Positions 2,496-6,513 of a stretch of DNA of 6,513 bases are shown here, piece by piece. The stretch is taken from IMG/VR virus record IMGVR_UViG_3300045988_000319, positions 1-6,513 of that record. The stretch is one strand, 5' to 3'. Numbering within the stretch: position 1 is the stretch's first letter; every line of letters begins with the position of its first letter. The notes below the pieces were generated by a model that made no database searches, was not told where the DNA came from, and saw only the letters and a program-made list of their open reading frames with translations. The translations under genes were made by a program, and so were the position numbers. This stretch comes from a virus.

Positions 2496-2516
2496 TATTT
2501 GTCATATTATTAATTT

Positions 2517-2580
2517 GCTCCGCGTGGATGTTTCTATAATCGTCCAGATTATAGAGATTTCCCACCGGAGCTTTTTTATT
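2517..2580 (+). terminator. Compound stem-loop followed by a T6 tract: a likely intrinsic terminator or mRNA-stabilising hairpin after the structural gene block.
   Basis: The outer stem pairs gctccg (2517-2522) with cggagc (2566-2571). The middle stem pairs gtgg (2524-2527) with ccac (2562-2565). The apical 8-bp stem pairs tctataat (2533-2540) with attataga (2548-2555) around the loop cgtccag. A TTTTTT run follows at 2572-2577, 22 nt downstream of the VP2 stop. Confidence 0.6.
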
Positions 2581-2660
2581 GTTATTCATTATTCTATTAA
2601 TATTGTCTTATATATTGTATTCCTATACTTCTGTTATACATTTTTGTTTTCATTTCCTTC

Positions 2661-3067
2661 CCGGGACGTCTTGTCAACTTTGTTGACGTTTGTCACCTTC
2701 CCCTTTATTGCCGGTAGCAATGAAATTGCGTTTATAGCGCGAGCGACAAAAAAGGGTTCTAGGGCTTTGCCCTAGAGCGTTAGCACCTTGATATCGCCAA
2801 AGGCGCATTCGCTTTAGCGAACACTTCTGTCCTTAATCGGTTTCTTAAGGTTGCTGTCCGTTTGTCTTATCGCAGAGTTCACTCCCTGTAAAATTAAAAA
2901 AAAAATAGCGGCGAGTCCGCCAGATGTTTTACGAAGTAAAACTAATCTATGATAGCTTCATAGTCGGATGGTTTATTCTTGGCGAAGCCTATTTCATTTT
3001 TCCCGAAGGGTAATTACTTTATCTTAGTAATTACTCTCTATCCTTGTCATATATACGAAAAATGACA
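2661..3067 (+). other. GC-enriched, hairpin-dense noncoding island: a candidate ssDNA complementary-strand origin or structured RNA. Its function is unknown.
   Basis: No plausible ORF lies on either strand. About 13 local inverted repeats are present. (1) 2673-2687 gtcaac/ttt/gttgac. (2) 2717-2729 gcaat/gaa/attgc. (3) 2756-2778, core ctagggc/ttt/gccctag. (4) 2795-2805 cgcc/aaa/ggcg. (5) 2808-2821 ttcgc/ttta/gcgaa. (6) 2831-2850 ccttaa/tcggtttc/ttaagg. (7) 2910-2921 ggcg/agtc/cgcc. (8) 2926-2942 gttttac/gaa/gtaaaac. (9) 2947-2963 ctatga/tagct/tcatag. (10) 2981-2989 ggc/gaa/gcc. (11) 3002-3010 ccc/gaa/ggg. (12) 3010-3034 gtaattac/tttatctta/gtaattac. (13) 3045-3067 tgtcat/11-nt loop/atgaca. A hand count of 2761-2820 gives 32/60 G+C, well above the AT-rich coding sequence. 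Confidence 0.6.
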
Positions 3068-3108
3068 CACCCCCCCTAATACATAACTTTATTCATAATA
3101 TAAGTTAA

Positions 3109-3116
3109 TAAATTTG
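3109..3116 (+). promoter_or_regulatory. Bacteroidetes-type -7 promoter element TAAATTTG (consensus TAnnTTTG), upstream of the 3147 / 3385 / VP4 gene block.
   Basis: An exact TAnnTTTG match sits 31 nt upstream of ATG 3147, in an AT-rich stretch at the end of the noncoding region. There is no exact TTTG -33 box; only CTTTA lies near 3087-3091. The motif is short, and several chance matches are expected in a T-rich 6.5-kb genome (one at 728-735 lies inside VP1). Support therefore comes mainly from position. Confidence 0.4.
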
Positions 3117-3146
3117 CTAGTTACGATTATTTTCCACTAGTTTTAC

Positions 3147-3368
3147 ATGTCTAAAAAAAAAGTTATGAAAATTACAGCTACTCAGTGGATTGAAATCGTT
3201 AAATTGATTGCCACATTTGTTATTGGTGTTATTACCACATTGTTTGTTCATTCTTGCACCCTTTCTTTGTCTGTTGCTAAGAATAATACTAACTCTACTC
3301 AAAAAACTGAGCAGACATCTACTTCATCTGTGGATTCTACTCATATCAATATTAATCCCAAGTACTAA
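3147..3368 (+). CDS. Small (73 aa) membrane-anchored or lipoprotein-like protein. Function unknown.
   Basis: It is the first ORF after the candidate promoter. The N-terminus is basic (MSKKKVMK) and is followed by a hydrophobic segment, IEIVKLIATFVIGVITTLFV. This is followed by HSC (Cys37, a weak lipobox) and a 36-aa Ser/Thr/Asn-rich tail. A second in-frame ATG lies at 3165. I recognise no homology. Confidence 0.6.
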   Translation: MSKKKVMKITATQWIEIVKLIATFVIGVITTLFVHSCTLSLSVAKNNTNSTQKTEQTSTSSVDSTHININPKY

Positions 3369-3580: not shown

Positions 3581-5416
3581 ATGATACCTAAGGAAGAATT
3601 ATTAACGAAATACCTTTTTACTGAGTGTCTTAGGCCTCAGAGAATTGTGAATCCTTATTCTCATGATGTGATATTTGCTCCGTGTGGACATTGTAAATCA
3701 TGTATTATGAATAAGTCGAATTTTGCTACGGCTTATGCCATGAACATGGCTACACATTTTAAGTATTGTTATTTCGTTACTCTTACATATAAGGACATAT
3801 TTCTTCCTTACTTGTCCGTCGAGGTTGTTCGGAGGTCTGGTAATCGTTACCTCTTTGATGAAAACTTTGAGACAATGGTTTCCACTTCCGACCCTCGACT
3901 TTTAACTCCTGAATATTATCATGATCGCGACCTTTCCCTCGATCCTGCTCAGAATGAAGTTGAGCAAGTTTTTGATATAGGTTTTCAATCTATTCCTAGA
4001 GATGTTTCCGTAAAATCAAAAGGATCATTTCGTTTTCGTTCCTTTGATGATGACCCCCTAAAGTTTTGCATACCTATGAAACTTACTGAACTTCAGGATA
4101 TTTTGATTAAGGCTAATGGTCGTTATGATTATGGTAAGAATAAAGTAGTTTATCCTTCTCTTGCTGATTGTAAGCTACAGATACCTGTTCTTCAATCTCG
4201 TGATATTGAATTGTTTTTTAAGCGTTTACGAAGAAATTTAGATTCTCATGGATTCACTTCCTCGAAAATATGTTACTACGTTGTATCAGAATACGGACCC
4301 CAAACTTACCGTCCGCATTGGCATTGTTTATTATTCTTTGACTCGGAAGAGATCACCAAAACACTTCGAGAAGATATATCTAAGGCTTGGTCCTACGGTC
4401 GTATCGATTACTCTCTCTCCCGTGGAGCGGCTGCTTCCTATGTTGCGTCATATGTTAATAGTGCTGCTTGTTTACCATTCCTTTATGTTGGACAAAAAGA
4501 AATCCGCCCTCGATCCTTCCATTCCAAGGGATTTGGCTCGAATAAAATCTTTCCTAAATCGTCCGACGTTTCAGAAATTTCAAAGATATCCGATCTCTAC
4601 TTTGATGGCGTTAACGTCGATTCTAATGGGAAGACTGTCAACATCAGGCCTGTACGGCAGAGTGAGCTTACGGTATTCCCCCGATTCTCTAATGATTTTT
4701 TCTCAGATTGTGATACTTGTTGCAAGTTATTTCAGTCTGTCATTGAAACACCCAAACGCCTCGTTTCGCGCGGCTATCTTGGAATAGACACTCTTGATTT
4801 TGGTTCCGATGGTTTTCGATTATCTGATCTCGTACGTGCTTATTCTGAATACTATGAGCGGAATTTTACCGACTTTTCATTTAGCCTTCGTTTCCTTAGA
4901 GGTTATCGAACTCGTGATTATGCTGATGAATTGATATTTCGTGAGGCACGTCTTTTTGATGGTTATGTATTCAATAAAGATATGATTTTTGGTAGATTGT
5001 ATCGTTTATTTGCTAAAGTCCTTCGTTGTTTTAAGTTTTGGAATTTGAAACAATATACTGATTCTTGGTCTTTAAAGGCTGCTATTAAGAAAATTTGGTC
5101 GCATGGATGGGAATATTGGAAAAAGAAAGAATATCGTTTCTTAACTACCTATTTTGAGTATCTCGAAGGCTGTAACGACGACGAACGCTTGTTCCTTTTG
5201 GTTCGTACTTCAGGTTCTGGTCTTGCTACTGATTCTCCTCATTCCTGGACTTATACTCAGCGTGAAGATTATGTAAATTGTCTTCCTGATGATCTTTATA
5301 AGCGTTATATGAATACTCTTAAATGGTTGACCGCCCGCACGGAGAAGGTCTTGAAGGATAAGGTCAAACATAAAGAGTTTAATGATATGCAAGGTGTTTT
5401 ATTATTTTCTGATTAA
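3581..5416 (+). CDS. VP4: Replication initiation protein VP4 (phiX174 gpA-like HUH rolling-circle endonuclease), 611 aa.
   Basis: An N-terminal Cys cluster reads PCGHCKSC (aa 34-41). Motif I is FVTLTY (aa 65-70, nt 3773-3790). The basic block FFKRLRR spans aa 212-218. The HUH motif is RPHWHCLLF (H246/H248, nt 4316-4324). The catalytic tyrosine pair is YVASY (Y287/Y291, nt 4439-4453). Confidence 0.95.
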   Translation: MIPKEELLTKYLFTECLRPQRIVNPYSHDVIFAPCGHCKSCIMNKSNFATAYAMNMATHFKYCYFVTLTYKDIFLPYLSVEVVRRSGNRYLFDENFETMVSTSDPRLLTPEYYHDRDLSLDPAQNEVEQVFDIGFQSIPRDVSVKSKGSFRFRSFDDDPLKFCIPMKLTELQDILIKANGRYDYGKNKVVYPSLADCKLQIPVLQSRDIELFFKRLRRNLDSHGFTSSKICYYVVSEYGPQTYRPHWHCLLFFDSEEITKTLREDISKAWSYGRIDYSLSRGAAASYVASYVNSAACLPFLYVGQKEIRPRSFHSKGFGSNKIFPKSSDVSEISKISDLYFDGVNVDSNGKTVNIRPVRQSELTVFPRFSNDFFSDCDTCCKLFQSVIETPKRLVSRGYLGIDTLDFGSDGFRLSDLVRAYSEYYERNFTDFSFSLRFLRGYRTRDYADELIFREARLFDGYVFNKDMIFGRLYRLFAKVLRCFKFWNLKQYTDSWSLKAAIKKIWSHGWEYWKKKEYRFLTTYFEYLEGCNDDERLFLLVRTSGSGLATDSPHSWTYTQREDYVNCLPDDLYKRYMNTLKWLTARTEKVLKDKVKHKEFNDMQGVLLFSD

Positions 5417-5428
5417 CTAATTTAATTT

Positions 5429-6513
5429 ATGGCACATTTTACTGGTTTAAAAGAACTTCAAAATCATCCCCATAAGGCTGGTTTTGATATTGGTAGTAAA
5501 AATTTGTTTACTGCTAAGGTAGGTGAATTGCTTCCTGTCTATTGGGATATGGCAATTCCTAATTGCGATTATGATATTGATTTGGCTTATTTTACTCGTA
5601 CTCGTCCCGTTCAGTCTGCTGCTTATACTCGTATTCGTGAGTATTTTGACTTTTATTCCGTTCCTTGTGATCTTCTTTGGAAATCATTTGATTCTGCTGT
5701 GATTCAGATGGGACAAATTGCCCCTGTTCAATCTAAGACTTTACTTGACCCTCTTACTGTTGGAACTGATATTCCTTGGTGTTCTCTTTTGGACCTTGGT
5801 AGAGCTATCTATTATTCTTCTGGTTCTGCTCCGTTAGGTTCTACTGTTTCAGTTACTTCTAAATTTGGTAACATTTTTGATTATAATAGAGGTGATACTT
5901 CTCATAAGTTACTTTCTTATCTTAATTATGGTAATTTAGTAAATCCCTCCGCTTCTGAGGTTGGCTCTTCAGCAAATCGTTGGTGGAACACTTCTTTTAC
6001 AACTTCTGGCGTTCAAAACTATTCTCAGAAGTATTTGAATAACAATGCTGTTTCTCTTTTCCCGCTTTTGGCTTATCAGAAGATTTATCAGGACTTCTTC
6101 CGTTGGTCGCAATGGGAAAATGCTGATCCTACGGCTTATAATGTAGATTATTACGCTGGTTCTGGTAATTTATTTGGATCTTCTGGTATTTCTGTTTCTA
6201 TTCCTAGTGGTAATGATTATTGGAAACGTGATAATATGTTTTCTCTTCGTTATTGTAATTGGAATAAGGACATGTTTATGGGTCTCCTTCCTAATTCCCA
6301 GTTTGGTGATGTAGCAGTCGTAAATTTAGGCGATTCTGGTTCCGGCACAATTCCTGTTGGATTCCTTTCTGATACGGATGTATTTACCCAAGCATTTAAT
6401 GCTACTGCTATGAAGACCGCTTCGGATACGTCTCCTATGGGTATTTCTGGTTCTACTACTGTTTCTGCTCGTCAGTCTATGGTTGCCCGGATTAATAATG
6501 CTGATGTTGCTTC
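5429..6513 (+). CDS. VP1: Major capsid protein VP1, N-terminal portion. It runs off the right edge and continues at nt 1 after the 55-nt overlap is removed.
   Basis: The ATG at 5429 lies 12 nt after the VP4 stop. I translated the frame by hand to the window end and found no stop. It is absent from the ORF track only because it lacks an in-window stop. It joins in phase to 3..839. Confidence 0.92.
   Translation, partial: MAHFTGLKELQNHPHKAGFDIGSKNLFTAKVGELLPVYWDMAIPNCDYDIDLAYFTRTRPVQSAAYTRIREYFDFYSVPCDLLWKSFDSAVIQMGQIAPVQSKTLLDPLTVGTDIPWCSLLDLGRAIYYSSGSAPLGSTVSVTSKFGNIFDYNRGDTSHKLLSYLNYGNLVNPSASEVGSSANRWWNTSFTTSGVQNYSQKYLNNNAVSLFPLLAYQKIYQDFFRWSQWENADPTAYNVDYYAGSGNLFGSSGISVSIPSGNDYWKRDNMFSLRYCNWNKDMFMGLLPNSQFGDVAVVNLGDSGSGTIPVGFLSDTDVFTQAFNATAMKTASDTSPMGISGSTTVSARQSMVARINNADVA
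6459..6513. repeat. Terminal overlap copy 2, identical to 1-55.
   Basis: The same 55-mer as at 1-55. It lies inside the VP1 coding sequence, so it is not a biological terminal repeat. Confidence 0.95.

Follow-up and report, generated by a model that had tools for sequence, protein, structure and literature searches.

The noncoding region downstream of the pilot gene of this microvirus harbors a composite element of about 350 nt (positions 2734-3076), in which a widely shared cassette is joined by an accessory module and a lineage-specific block. The three C-GAA-G hairpins for which the region was originally singled out would thereby be parts of one cis-acting element that functions when the T-rich strand is single-stranded and folded. 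That the element acts strand-specifically and in single-stranded DNA form is highly probable, and an origin region of some kind is the function we consider likely. Initiation of the complementary strand in particular, as proposed in the earlier note, is a plausible but tentative assignment that we place somewhat short of probable.

Genomic setting of the element

The window, by which we denote the entire 6,513-nt stretch analysed, represents a circular microvirus genome of 6,458 nt. Positions 2496-3146 are without a credible open reading frame and are flanked by the pilot gene and small early ORFs, a gene order that is found around the noncoding region in annotated relatives as well. The upstream border of the element is formed by a terminator-like inverted repeat (arms 2517-2541 and 2547-2571, followed by TTTTTTATT), and a hairpin with a T-run of differing sequence is located at this position in each close relative. 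At the downstream border, the motif TAAATTTG, which fits the -7 motif of Bacteroidetes promoters, is situated 31 nt upstream of the ATG at 3147 and is kept in relatives. Being placed between the terminator-like hairpin and this promoter, the hairpin region is thus probably untranscribed. A scan for sigma-70-type promoters, with a model ill-suited to Bacteroidetes, yielded no enrichment, and a search of the window for tRNA and tmRNA returned none.

A CRISPR spacer that matches the cassette exactly (Table 1; matching spacer at L064 1417-1446) speaks for a Bacteroides host of the phage, the repeat of the array being identified through PMC9367070.

Table 1. Features of the noncoding region and its borders, in window coordinates
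Feature	Position	Strand	Remarks
Long imperfect hairpin and T-run	2517..2580	+	Terminator-like; 3' of the pilot (VP2-like) gene; upstream border of the element
Hairpin GCAAT-GAA-ATTGC	2717..2729	+	Lineage-specific; common only to L045
Noncoding cassette, ~170 nt	2734..2905	+	Found in >180 microvirus genomes; parts in order: P2, mini-hairpin 1, linker, mini-hairpin 2, variable hairpin, pyrimidine-rich stretch, CCCTGTAAAATT, A-tract
P2 hairpin, TCTAGGGC-TTT-GCCCTAGA	2758..2776	+	Pairing kept in relatives
Protospacer	2775..2804		Exact match to a spacer of a Bacteroides fragilis-type II-C CRISPR array
Mini-hairpin 1, GCGTTAGC	2777..2784	+	GC-G..A-GC form
Unpaired linker, ACCTTGATAT	2785..2794	+	Nearly invariant; consensus ACC(T/A)T-RR-TAT
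Mini-hairpin 2, CGCC-AAA-GGCG	2795..2805	+	C-GAA-G or C-GGA-G mini-hairpin in most divergent versions
Accessory module	2906..2975	+	Optional, two-hairpin; carries hairpin 1
Hairpin A, GGCG-AGTC-CGCC	2910..2921	+	First in the accessory module; predicted in DNA fold
Hairpin 1 (hairpin B), GTTTTAC-GAA-GTAAAAC	2926..2942	+	Stem covaries
Hairpin CTATGA-TAGCT-TCATAG	2947..2963	+	Lineage-specific; predicted in DNA fold; common only to L046
Block IV	2979..3076	+	Lineage-specific, nearly invariant; C7 run at the 3' end, shortly before the promoter
Hairpin 2, GGC-GAA-GCC	2981..2989	+	Contains GCGAAGC; essentially invariant in the family
Hairpin 3, CCC-GAA-GGG	3002..3010	+	Essentially invariant in the family
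Hairpin 4, TAATTACT-TTATCTT-AGTAATTA	3011..3033	+	Compensatory change
Hairpin 5, TGTCAT-ATATACGAAAA-ATGACA	3045..3067	+	Invariant in the family
Promoter-like motif, TAAATTTG	3109..3116	+	Fits TAnnTTTG; downstream border of the element

Enrichment of C-GAA-G hairpins

The letters and coordinates of the three C-GAA-G hairpins described in the earlier note (hairpins 1 to 3) are exact, as are those of the GCGAAGC heptamer within hairpin 2 (2982-2988) and of the fourth GAA triloop upstream of the cassette. ACCGAAGGT, given there as lying at 2177-2185, is located at 2187-2195. Counting stems of at least 3 bp throughout the genome, the + strand carries four C-GAA-G hairpins and the - strand none, against a mean expectation of 0.23. 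None of 2,000 dinucleotide-preserving shuffles of the whole genome reached four such hairpins, and none placed three of them within 85 nt; in the noncoding region alone, three were observed where 0.027 are expected. Both the number and the clustering of these hairpins are thus far above chance. The signal is confined to the noncoding element rather than being genome-wide: C-GNA-G hairpins counted across entire genomes (171 genomes) are not generally more numerous on the T-rich strand (186 versus 232).

The 85-nt cluster does not represent the unit, the most conserved part of the region being the cassette at 2734-2905, which had previously gone unflagged.

A cassette shared by otherwise unrelated microviruses

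The cassette is 77-96% identical to unannotated DNA of otherwise unrelated microviruses. Its core was recovered from 37 contigs of IMG/VR, 95 stretches of metagenome DNA and 4 records in GenBank; among 80 genomes retrieved through the similarity of their Rep, 38 contain divergent versions. Since the core sequence served as the query for most loci, these prevalence figures are biased, and the unbiased sets are small, comprising 6 close relatives and the 80 Rep relatives. A host-derived cassette was considered and ruled out, the core being essentially absent from 185,579 bacterial genomes.

RNAalifold applied to the whole cassette produced only a poor consensus on either strand. With little variation in the 5' half and a 3' half rich in pyrimidines, helices were instead proposed by eye and tested by pair counts. 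The P2 hairpin retains its pairing in the variants GGGGCATACCCC and GGGTGTTACCC, and in remote versions as GGGACGGTTAGTCCC. Mini-hairpin 1 is paired in 100% of cases, with a compensatory G-C to A-T exchange in L160 and L169. Analogously, mini-hairpin 2 is always paired (100%) despite four different stems (CGCC/GGCG, CGAC/GTCG, CGGC/GCCG and CTGC/GCAG) and four different loops (GAA, GGA, AAA and AGA). Taken together, the two mini-hairpins exhibit 100% pairing with compensatory changes at 3 of 6 pairs, a covariation score matched by none of 500 shuffles. The linker that separates them tolerates GA, AG, AA or GG as its purine pair among the 37 unique core variants.

The carriers of the cassette differ considerably in their Rep proteins. 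The window encodes a Rep of 611 aa, versus about 325 aa in the others; the latter fall into three types, which are 38-60% identical to each other and show no BLAST similarity to the Rep of the window, and all Rep proteins concerned belong to Pfam PF23343. That the canonical cassette is common to phages with such different Reps fits recognition by host machinery. It is moreover dispensable: it has been deleted in L045, the Rep of which is 95% identical, and is absent from L048 and L049 as judged by alignment and covariance-model search.

Conservation of the accessory module and Block IV

The hairpins flagged earlier are conserved in relatives in a non-random manner, with the stems kept and the G-N-A loops maintained. 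In 103 of the 142 cassette-bearing genomes, hairpin 1 is present with a triloop and a perfectly paired stem (loops GAA 97, GTA 2, GCA 2 and GAG 2), and this stem exists in the types GTTATCGT, GTTTTCGT, GTTATTGT, GTTTTCAT and GTTATTGC, each with the matching 3' arm. A counterpart of hairpin A found elsewhere, GTCCGT-TCGTT-ACGGAC, shows compensatory changes at 3 of 6 pairs. For hairpins A and B combined, 99.3% of cells are paired and 8 of 16 pairs are compensatory, again with a score that none of 500 shuffles matched. The accessory module, to which hairpin 1 belongs, is missing from L043, L045, L029 and Dulem virus 245. Overall, the interpretation given in the earlier note is borne out in part.

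Block IV is nearly identical in 18 of 18 copies of the window's close family, and is 94-98% identical among relatives as compared to 81-93% for the adjacent coding DNA. Its architecture is kept in Dulem virus 245, Dipodfec virus 499, L048 and L049. The loop of hairpin 2 reads GAA in 15 copies, AAA in L115 and GCA in both L045 copies, and the hairpin takes the form GCTGGC-GAA-GCCAGC in L048 and L049 (Rep about 30% identical) and GGC-GAA-GCC in Dulem virus 245 (GGCGAAGCC). Hairpin 3 has GAA in 16 copies and GGA in L132, and becomes CCC-GTA-GGG in Dulem virus 245; in the latter virus, with a Rep 38% identical, hairpins 2 and 3 are separated by the identical 12-nt spacing. A compensatory A-T to G-C change is observed in hairpin 4 of L132, L142 and L044, and its place is taken by another stem in Dulem virus 245 and Dipodfec virus 499. 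More distant relatives contain a form related to hairpin 5, ..TTGCCTTAT...GTGACA.

Orientation and strand composition

The strand that carries the cassette has more T than A in 141 of 142 loci, with one exception. Where the coding strand is T-rich (26 loci, representing at least 5 capsid lineages), the cassette points in the same direction as the genes, and where the coding strand is A-rich (106 loci), it is antisense to them. It is likewise antisense in 38 of 38 further A-rich genomes fetched by Rep similarity, while Dulem virus 245 and Dipodfec virus 499 carry it in sense orientation. The A-rich loci represent a large clade of gut gokushovirus-like microviruses with A-rich, G-poor third codon positions, in which the cassette is antisense to every gene. 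Third-position frequencies are T.56, C.12, G.16 and A.16 in the window, and about T.48, C.13, G.20 and A.19 on the complement of the A-rich clade, so that the two groups are nearly the same when read on the T-rich strand. As both groups appear to infect Bacteroides, this mirror-image composition is not due to host codon usage. The cultured Bdellovibrio phage phiMH2K also possesses A-rich, G-poor third positions; no cassette was detectable in it.

Read on the cassette strand, the non-Watson-Crick pairs among the unique stem variants amount to 10 G·T and 0 A·C. A C-to-T mutation bias on the cassette strand, instead of selection for folding, could partly account for this G·T excess. Folding energy was uninformative as a discriminator of the strands, as z-scores are near -3 for both and nearest-neighbour energies are the same.

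A bias towards T is known for single-stranded DNA phages (PMC3278643), and given its T-rich, C-poor composition, the encapsidated strand in this phage is presumably the T-rich coding strand. For the A-rich clade, where the cassette is antisense to all genes, a single-stranded DNA function requires that the strand complementary to mRNA be exposed or packaged. It is possible, if doubtful, that the orientation of the cassette marks the single-stranded strand in general and that the A-rich clade consists of negative-sense single-stranded DNA phages, packaging the complement of their mRNA. To our knowledge, such packaging has never been reported for the Microviridae, and a literature search for negative-sense or A-rich microviruses, for the element and for its sequence found nothing relevant.

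Comparison with known origins

The closest parallels are offered by the primase-dependent complementary-strand origins of G4 and its allies. The sequence GCGAAAGC is present in the G4 origin and GCGTTAGC in those of St-1 and alpha3, and the hairpins of the G4, St-1, alpha3 and phiK origins have been proposed to stay free of single-strand-binding protein, as reviewed by Hirao (PMC13037366). Like the element described here, these origins are positioned between genes in noncoding DNA, comprise several hairpins and reside in the single-stranded DNA genome of a microvirus. They share with it mini-hairpins of the GCGNNAGC or GCGNAGC type, represented in the window by GCGTTAGC at 2777 and GCGAAGC at 2982; with St-1 and alpha3 an identical 8-mer, GCGTTAGC, is held in common as reported in the review, a likeness of short motifs. 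On the other hand, the G4-type origins function in Escherichia hosts, while the element belongs to a phage of Bacteroides, is larger (about 350 nt) and is modular. Hairpins with GAA or GGA triloops also serve as initiation signals in single-stranded DNA in RSF1010 ssiA (CCGAAGG) and the N4 virion RNA polymerase promoters (GCGGAGC) (PMC13037366). Those are however read by enzymes of their own, the RepB' primase and the N4 RNA polymerase, and the genome in the window encodes none such.

The statement in the earlier note that GCGAAGC occurs in or near a phiX174 origin region proved accurate. The heptamer is found at position 2358 of phiX174, in a small hairpin (nt 2353-2373) of the F-G intergenic region that adjoins the PriA-binding hairpin of ori(-), and this small hairpin is sensitive to mutation on both stems. 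The F-G region and the element are both situated between a terminator and the next gene, and no other sequence similarity between them was seen.

The single-strand origins (sso) of rolling-circle plasmids are folded noncoding cassettes of about 150-300 nt, which have a set orientation with respect to the displaced strand, are specific to a host, can be dispensed with and pass between replicons whose Reps are unrelated. The element matches this description in several respects, despite belonging to a phage rather than a plasmid: it is a noncoding cassette with extensive intrastrand pairing, is host-specific, can be exchanged between different Rep types and is dispensable, with modules lost in relatives. 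Its orientation is fixed relative to the T-rich strand, which may be the displaced one. Dispensability is a known property of complementary-strand origins, both in M13 and among plasmid sso. In M13, f1 and fd, the intergenic region consists of consecutive hairpins with both origins side by side. The element is likewise one long noncoding hairpin region, and the same side-by-side arrangement of origins may apply here; the two regions are not homologous and belong to different virus families and Rep contexts.

The element might operate as follows. The two very stable mini-hairpins would hold the 10-nt linker of the cassette unpaired between them. Short G+C stems closed by G-N-A triloops would stay folded on the incoming DNA in the presence of the host single-strand-binding protein, and the folded hairpins would mark and expose a start for a priming enzyme of the Bacteroides host, either primase or RNA polymerase. 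The complementary strand would then be started there, as in the origins of G4, St-1, alpha3 and M13 and in the sso of rolling-circle plasmids.

Alternative functions

The invariant linker resembles the phiX174 nick site, which makes a viral-strand (+) origin a real alternative or an additional function, even if we regard it as unlikely that this is the main role. Here, Rep, an HUH enzyme, would nick the linker at ACCTTG/ATAT, held open by the mini-hairpins, with the rest of the array providing Rep-binding and termination context and the orientation defining the strand that is displaced and packaged. The orientation rule is explained equally well in this manner. Furthermore, 10 of 11 positions of CACCTTGATAT agree with phiX174 CAACTTG^ATAT (CAACTTG^ATATTAATAACACTATAGACCAC; rep_origin annotated at 4306), this agreement lies where the cassette varies least, the cassette of the A-rich clade is always located just downstream of the Rep gene, and a single Pfam family covers all Reps concerned. 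Yet the putative cleavage bases vary freely among purines (GA, AG, AA, GG), with ACCTTAGAC or ACCTTAGAT in remote versions, and one cassette sequence serves Reps that are 38% identical or unalignable. In L045, L048 and L049, which lack the cassette, no motif was found to take its place, and a loosely defined nick motif sought in the cassette-less genomes was too common to be meaningful. The phiX174 viral-strand origin is also embedded in gene A, whereas the cassette is noncoding, and the nucleotide-level constraint in phiX174 ends at the 30-nt origin, of which the remaining 19 nt are unmatched, the AT-rich spacer and the right-hand part being without counterpart. Accordingly, neither the 30-nt origin sequence, nor an invariant cleavage dinucleotide, nor presence with every cognate Rep, as expected of a phiX174-type origin, was found.

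A wider homology to the phiX174 viral-strand origin was also considered, as CTTGATAT, the CCCGAAGGG hairpin and then ACGAAAAATG follow in the same order in both. This was rejected, the collinear likeness being at chance (27, versus 26 for the best unrelated control window), which leaves the 10/11 linker match as the only lead. As for the complementary-strand origin envisaged at the outset, the conserved hairpins of single-stranded DNA type are congruent with it, but the observations as a whole do not separate a complementary-strand from a viral-strand or a combined origin.

We find it improbable that the element represents the gene of a structured noncoding RNA, transcribed in the same direction as the other genes in this phage and opposite to them in the A-rich clade. 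Covariation and wobbles of the G·U type are equally expected of a structured RNA, and the sharing by unrelated phages could reflect a useful RNA cargo. However, no Rfam 15 covariance model matched the element on either strand even at E<=1, no consistent promoter was seen upstream, and in the window the element comes after a terminator-like hairpin. A self-contained gene would moreover be free to adopt either orientation, yet the orientation tracks strand composition (141/142). The stems of 2-8 bp, the triloops closed by C-G and the GC-G..A-GC form are weak in RNA and exceptionally stable in DNA (PMC13037366). C-G-closed triloops thus represent a stability motif of DNA, not RNA, which together with the strand rule and the G·T pairs argues for a function in single-stranded DNA.

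We attach equally little credence to a function in double-stranded DNA, with Block IV as an operator or upstream promoter region of the early genes and the inverted repeats as protein-binding palindromes or bidirectional terminators. The 3' end of Block IV is indeed about 10 nt upstream of the promoter region, 8-bp and 6-bp inverted repeats are present in the block, and on the - strand hairpin A with a T10 run and P2 with a T6 run score as terminator-like. Nevertheless, compensatory changes in both arms are more readily explained by base pairing than by a half-site for a protein, and relatives have different stems of the same geometry at the same position. The conservation of the G-N-A loops and the lack of such hairpins on the other strand would be left unexplained, and the strict strand rule is unexpected for a duplex site.

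Finally, a role in recombination or integration, for instance as a dif-like attP on which host XerC/XerD would act, is hardly credible and largely refuted: dif motifs do occur in noncoding regions of some gokushoviruses (PMC7062461), and the element is noncoding and exchanged between phages, but no resemblance to the 28-bp dif layout was seen, a 350-nt array of covarying hairpins far exceeds the needs of a Xer site, and integrated copies were not found, since the sole bacterial match to the core, in 1 of 185,579 species-representative genomes, covers 21-23 nt of a G+C-rich Sneathiella contig with unaligned flanks.

Implications for microvirus replication

We know of no replication origin mapped for the Microviridae outside phiX174 and the G4 group, and a literature search for such mapped origins found none. 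Microviruses of the sort studied here rank with the most frequent phages in the guts of humans and animals, and the element provides a concrete, conserved origin candidate for them, confined to a few hundred bases with defined hairpins and an invariant linker. The invariant core, which host CRISPR systems target, could serve as a metagenome marker for the group. Moreover, the link between cassette orientation and strand composition bears on which strand the large A-rich clade packages.

Clustered hairpins in a noncoding gap

The window represents a circular genome (6,458 nt) with a 55-nt terminal redundancy (1-55 = 6459-6513), opened inside the capsid gene, and its + strand carries all long ORFs. 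The pilot-like ORF and two small ORFs are separated by a gap of 650 nt that holds no credible gene, and gene order and gap position are the same in the annotated relatives Dulem virus 245, Dipodfec virus 499 and Dulem virus 257. The ORF directly following the gap (3147-3368, 73 aa) includes a hydrophobic stretch, IATFVIGVITTLFV, and lacks a Pfam match; judged from its sequence, the product may be a small membrane protein.

An earlier note had proposed three C-GAA-G hairpins in this gap as a candidate complementary-strand origin. These, and a fourth hairpin at 2717, have exactly the sequences and places described, while a comparison site, ACCGAAGGT, assigned to 2177-2185, actually lies at 2187-2195. 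The enrichment is not due to chance: with stems of at least 3 bp, the + strand holds four C-GAA-G hairpins and the - strand none, against a mean of 0.23 in 2,000 dinucleotide-preserving shuffles, none of which reached four or placed three within 85 nt. For the gap alone, three are observed and 0.027 expected. The clustering is hence confirmed, and extends to a larger array.

Features of the genome and of the array (window positions)
Feature	Position	Strand	Remark
Capsid gene		+	Pfam Phage_F
Scaffold-like ORF		+	
Pilot-like ORF	end at 2495	+	
Noncoding gap	2496-3146		
Cassette	2734-2905		
P2 hairpin	2758-2776		inside cassette
First mini-hairpin of core	2777-2784	+	GCGTTAGC
Accessory module	2906-2975		hairpin A and hairpin 1
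Hairpin A	2910-2921		
Hairpin 1	2926-2942		
Block IV	2979-3076		
Hairpin 2	2981-2989		
Hairpin 3	3002-3010		
Two small ORFs	from 3147	+	
Rep, 611 aa	3581-5416	+	Pfam PF23343

Conservation of Block IV and the accessory module

All six complete close relatives, obtained through their similar Rep (94-96% amino-acid identity), carry Block IV with its hairpins 2 and 3. Block IV is nearly invariant across 18 copies in the window's family, with 94-98% identity versus 81-93% for the adjoining coding DNA. The few changes preserve the motif, the loop being GAA, AAA or GCA in hairpin 2 and GAA or GGA in hairpin 3, and the hairpin after hairpin 3 shows a compensatory A-T to G-C change in three genomes. 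Dulem virus 245, with a Rep 38% identical, has the same array in the form GGC-GAA-GCC, a 12-nt spacer, CCC-GTA-GGG, a different-stem hairpin, a C-run and ..GTGACA, and Dipodfec virus 499 has the same geometry with other loops. Two genomes with a Rep ~30% identical (L048, L049) carry GCTGGC-GAA-GCCAGC and then a covarying second hairpin, and the gap of Dulem virus 257 contains four C-GNA-G hairpins, all on the + strand. Conservation in relatives, a check suggested for all three hairpins, thus bears out the proposed motif as a deep feature of the lineage. The close relative L045 (5956-6486) retains no more than the initial 17 nt of the cassette. Its Block IV is duplicated with a GCA loop in hairpin 2 of both copies, and the ends of the contig lie inside Block IV, beside a poly-T run.

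At the place of hairpin 1, a perfect hairpin of at least 6 bp is found in 103 of 142 cassette-bearing genomes, with stems GTTATCGT, GTTTTCGT, GTTATTGT, GTTTTCAT, GTTATTGC or GTTTTAC, the 3' arm matching in each, and loops GAA (97), GTA (2), GCA (2) or GAG (2). It is the second of two hairpins in the accessory module, the three helices of which are 99.3% paired across 27 distinct sequences, with changes on both sides in 8 of 16 pairs and a covariation score equalled in 0 of 500 shuffles. The module occurs in four of the six complete close relatives. L043, L045, L029 and Dulem virus 245 lack it, and there Block IV follows immediately on the cassette's A-tract. Considering this covariation and the absences, hairpin 1 is a selected structure within an optional module. 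In another genome (L144), a 20-bp perfect hairpin (CTGCCGCATGGTATAGACCG..CGGTCTATACCATGCGGCAG) stands downstream of the cassette in place of the usual module. Two stretches score as intrinsic terminators when read on the - strand, hairpin A with a T10 run after it (2906-2922) and P2 with a T6 run after it (2758-2776), and might stop antisense transcription.

A cassette shared among unrelated genomes

In a search of deposited phage genomes, 2734-2903, directly upstream of the hairpins, was 77-96% identical to unannotated DNA of microviruses that otherwise have no detectable DNA-level similarity to the window. The invariant core of this cassette was found in 37 IMG/VR contigs of microvirus size and in 95 stretches of metagenome DNA, and among 185,579 bacterial genomes gave one short match only, in G+C-rich DNA with non-aligning flanks. 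This match, 21-23 nt long and exact, lies in a Sneathiella MAG (L042 5795-5817; 61% G+C, flanks unlike the cassette) and is probably coincidental, inside a gene. Among the six close relatives the gap is mosaic: five have the cassette, and in L045 it is deleted.

Divergent versions, taken from 80 genomes fetched via Rep protein alignment, reveal the layout of the core: a mini-hairpin GC-G(TT/TCT/ACT)A-GC, a 10-nt linker ACC(T/A)T-RR-TAT and a mini-hairpin CGNC-(GAA/GGA/AAA/AGA)-GNCG. Both mini-hairpins are 100% paired, with compensatory changes in 3 of 6 pairs and a covariation score equalled in 0 of 500 shuffles. The second is a C-GAA-G or C-GGA-G hairpin in most versions, and the AAA loop of the window is a derived state. 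Remote versions in more distant genomes, recovered by covariance-model search, keep the P2 hairpin, GCGTTAGC, ACCTTAGA and ..CGTAAAATTAT. St-1 and alpha3 are reported to have the 8-mer GCGTTAGC in their complementary-strand origins (PMC13037366).

A proposed origin: complementary-strand or viral-strand

Several findings argue that the element is recognised by the host, and hence for a complementary-strand origin. The array is much longer than nicking would require. The same cassette accompanies Reps that are 38-60% identical mutually, or unalignable to that of the window; it can be lost (L045, L048, L049), and sub-modules are swapped between the window's family and the A-rich clade, a large gokushovirus-like capsid clade (A-rich type of variable hairpin in L027, of accessory module in L013, L027 and L044). 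A viral-strand origin is favoured by one point, CACCTTGATAT in the invariant linker, which matches phiX174 CAACTTG^ATAT at 10 of 11 positions. However, the two bases at the putative cleavage point vary among purines, broader collinear likeness to the phiX174 origin region is at chance level, and nucleotide-level constraint in phiX174 ends with the 30-nt origin. Tested as a viral-strand origin of that 30-nt type, the element fails. A combined region with both origins, as in filamentous phages, is possible by analogy.

In its working, the element would resemble the hairpin origins of G4, St-1, alpha3 and M13 and plasmid single-strand origins, with shared motifs of 7-8 nt. What the note says of phiX174 is right: GCGAAGC lies at phiX174 2358, within the small hairpin beside the PriA-binding complementary-strand origin. 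The proposal is supported in part, and membership in any one of these families would be tentative. The element would be a signal of a known type, in a novel form that is widely distributed.

Host

One metagenome hit (L064 1-2218; contig OCAI01000024.1, 245,703 nt) is a CRISPR array with 26 copies of a 47-nt repeat, which is one position off that of Bacteroides fragilis type II-C (PMC9367070, PMC6390457). Of the 25 spacers, at least 9 match the A-rich clade, and one reproduces the cassette core exactly, being identical to window 2775-2804. Together with a Bacteroidetes-type promoter motif at the end of the array of hairpins, this supports a predicted Bacteroides host for both groups, and a common host would explain how the cassette could be exchanged. 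Natural core variants within the protospacer (L044/L070, L046, L043, L152), namely TTAGTATC, CACTTT, CCCCTT and loops AGA or GAA, could be CRISPR escape mutations.

The element follows the T-rich strand

The cassette is sense to the genes in the window and 25 other loci of at least five capsid lineages, with third codon positions ~54% T. One large capsid clade, with 106 loci, has it antisense to all genes, with third positions ~48% A and 13% G; the contigs are metagenomic, most loci were retrieved using the core itself, and independent acquisitions are few, roughly six. Further cassette-bearing genomes fetched via Rep were A-rich with an antisense cassette in 38 of 38 cases, and a T-rich composition goes with a sense cassette in Dulem virus 245 and Dipodfec virus 499. 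Irrespective of gene direction, the element is thus always found on the T-rich, C-poor strand.

A self-contained RNA gene is not expected to obey such a rule, and no Rfam family matches the element. Its stems are short, with triloops closed by C-G or sheared G·A. Such triloops are unremarkable in RNA. In DNA, they are exceptionally stable (PMC13037366). In the window, a long hairpin and T-run precede the array, and a TAnnTTTG-type motif, which we take to be the Bacteroidetes-type promoter motif, ends it 31 nt before the next ATG, so the array is probably not transcribed. Aggregated, these points make a structured RNA very unlikely.

The non-Watson-Crick pairs in unique stem variants of three helices, read on the T-rich strand, are ten G·T and no A·C. 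This excess fits folding of that strand, and would equally be expected from C-to-T bias on it; both readings point to the T-rich strand as the exposed one. Single-stranded DNA phages favour NNT codons, a preference that has been explained by deamination, C to T, on the single strand (PMC3278643).

Two metagenome contigs (L084 ~6000-6400, L110 ~7000) join 60-65% G+C DNA to A-rich microvirus-type DNA (36-40% G+C), which could reflect assembly chimera or an integration junction. A locus from an 18,383-nt contig (L058), one half of it T-rich and the other A-rich, looks like two head-to-head microvirus genomes or a chimeric assembly.

Across L001-L226, the fetched comparison loci, third positions are mirror images: T ~.55 and C ~.12 in the window's group, A ~.48 and G ~.13 in the gokushovirus-like clade, a composition type shared by the cultured phage phiMH2K (A.39, G.09). 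Under the strand rule, phages of the A-rich clade could be packaging the strand that is complementary to their mRNAs.
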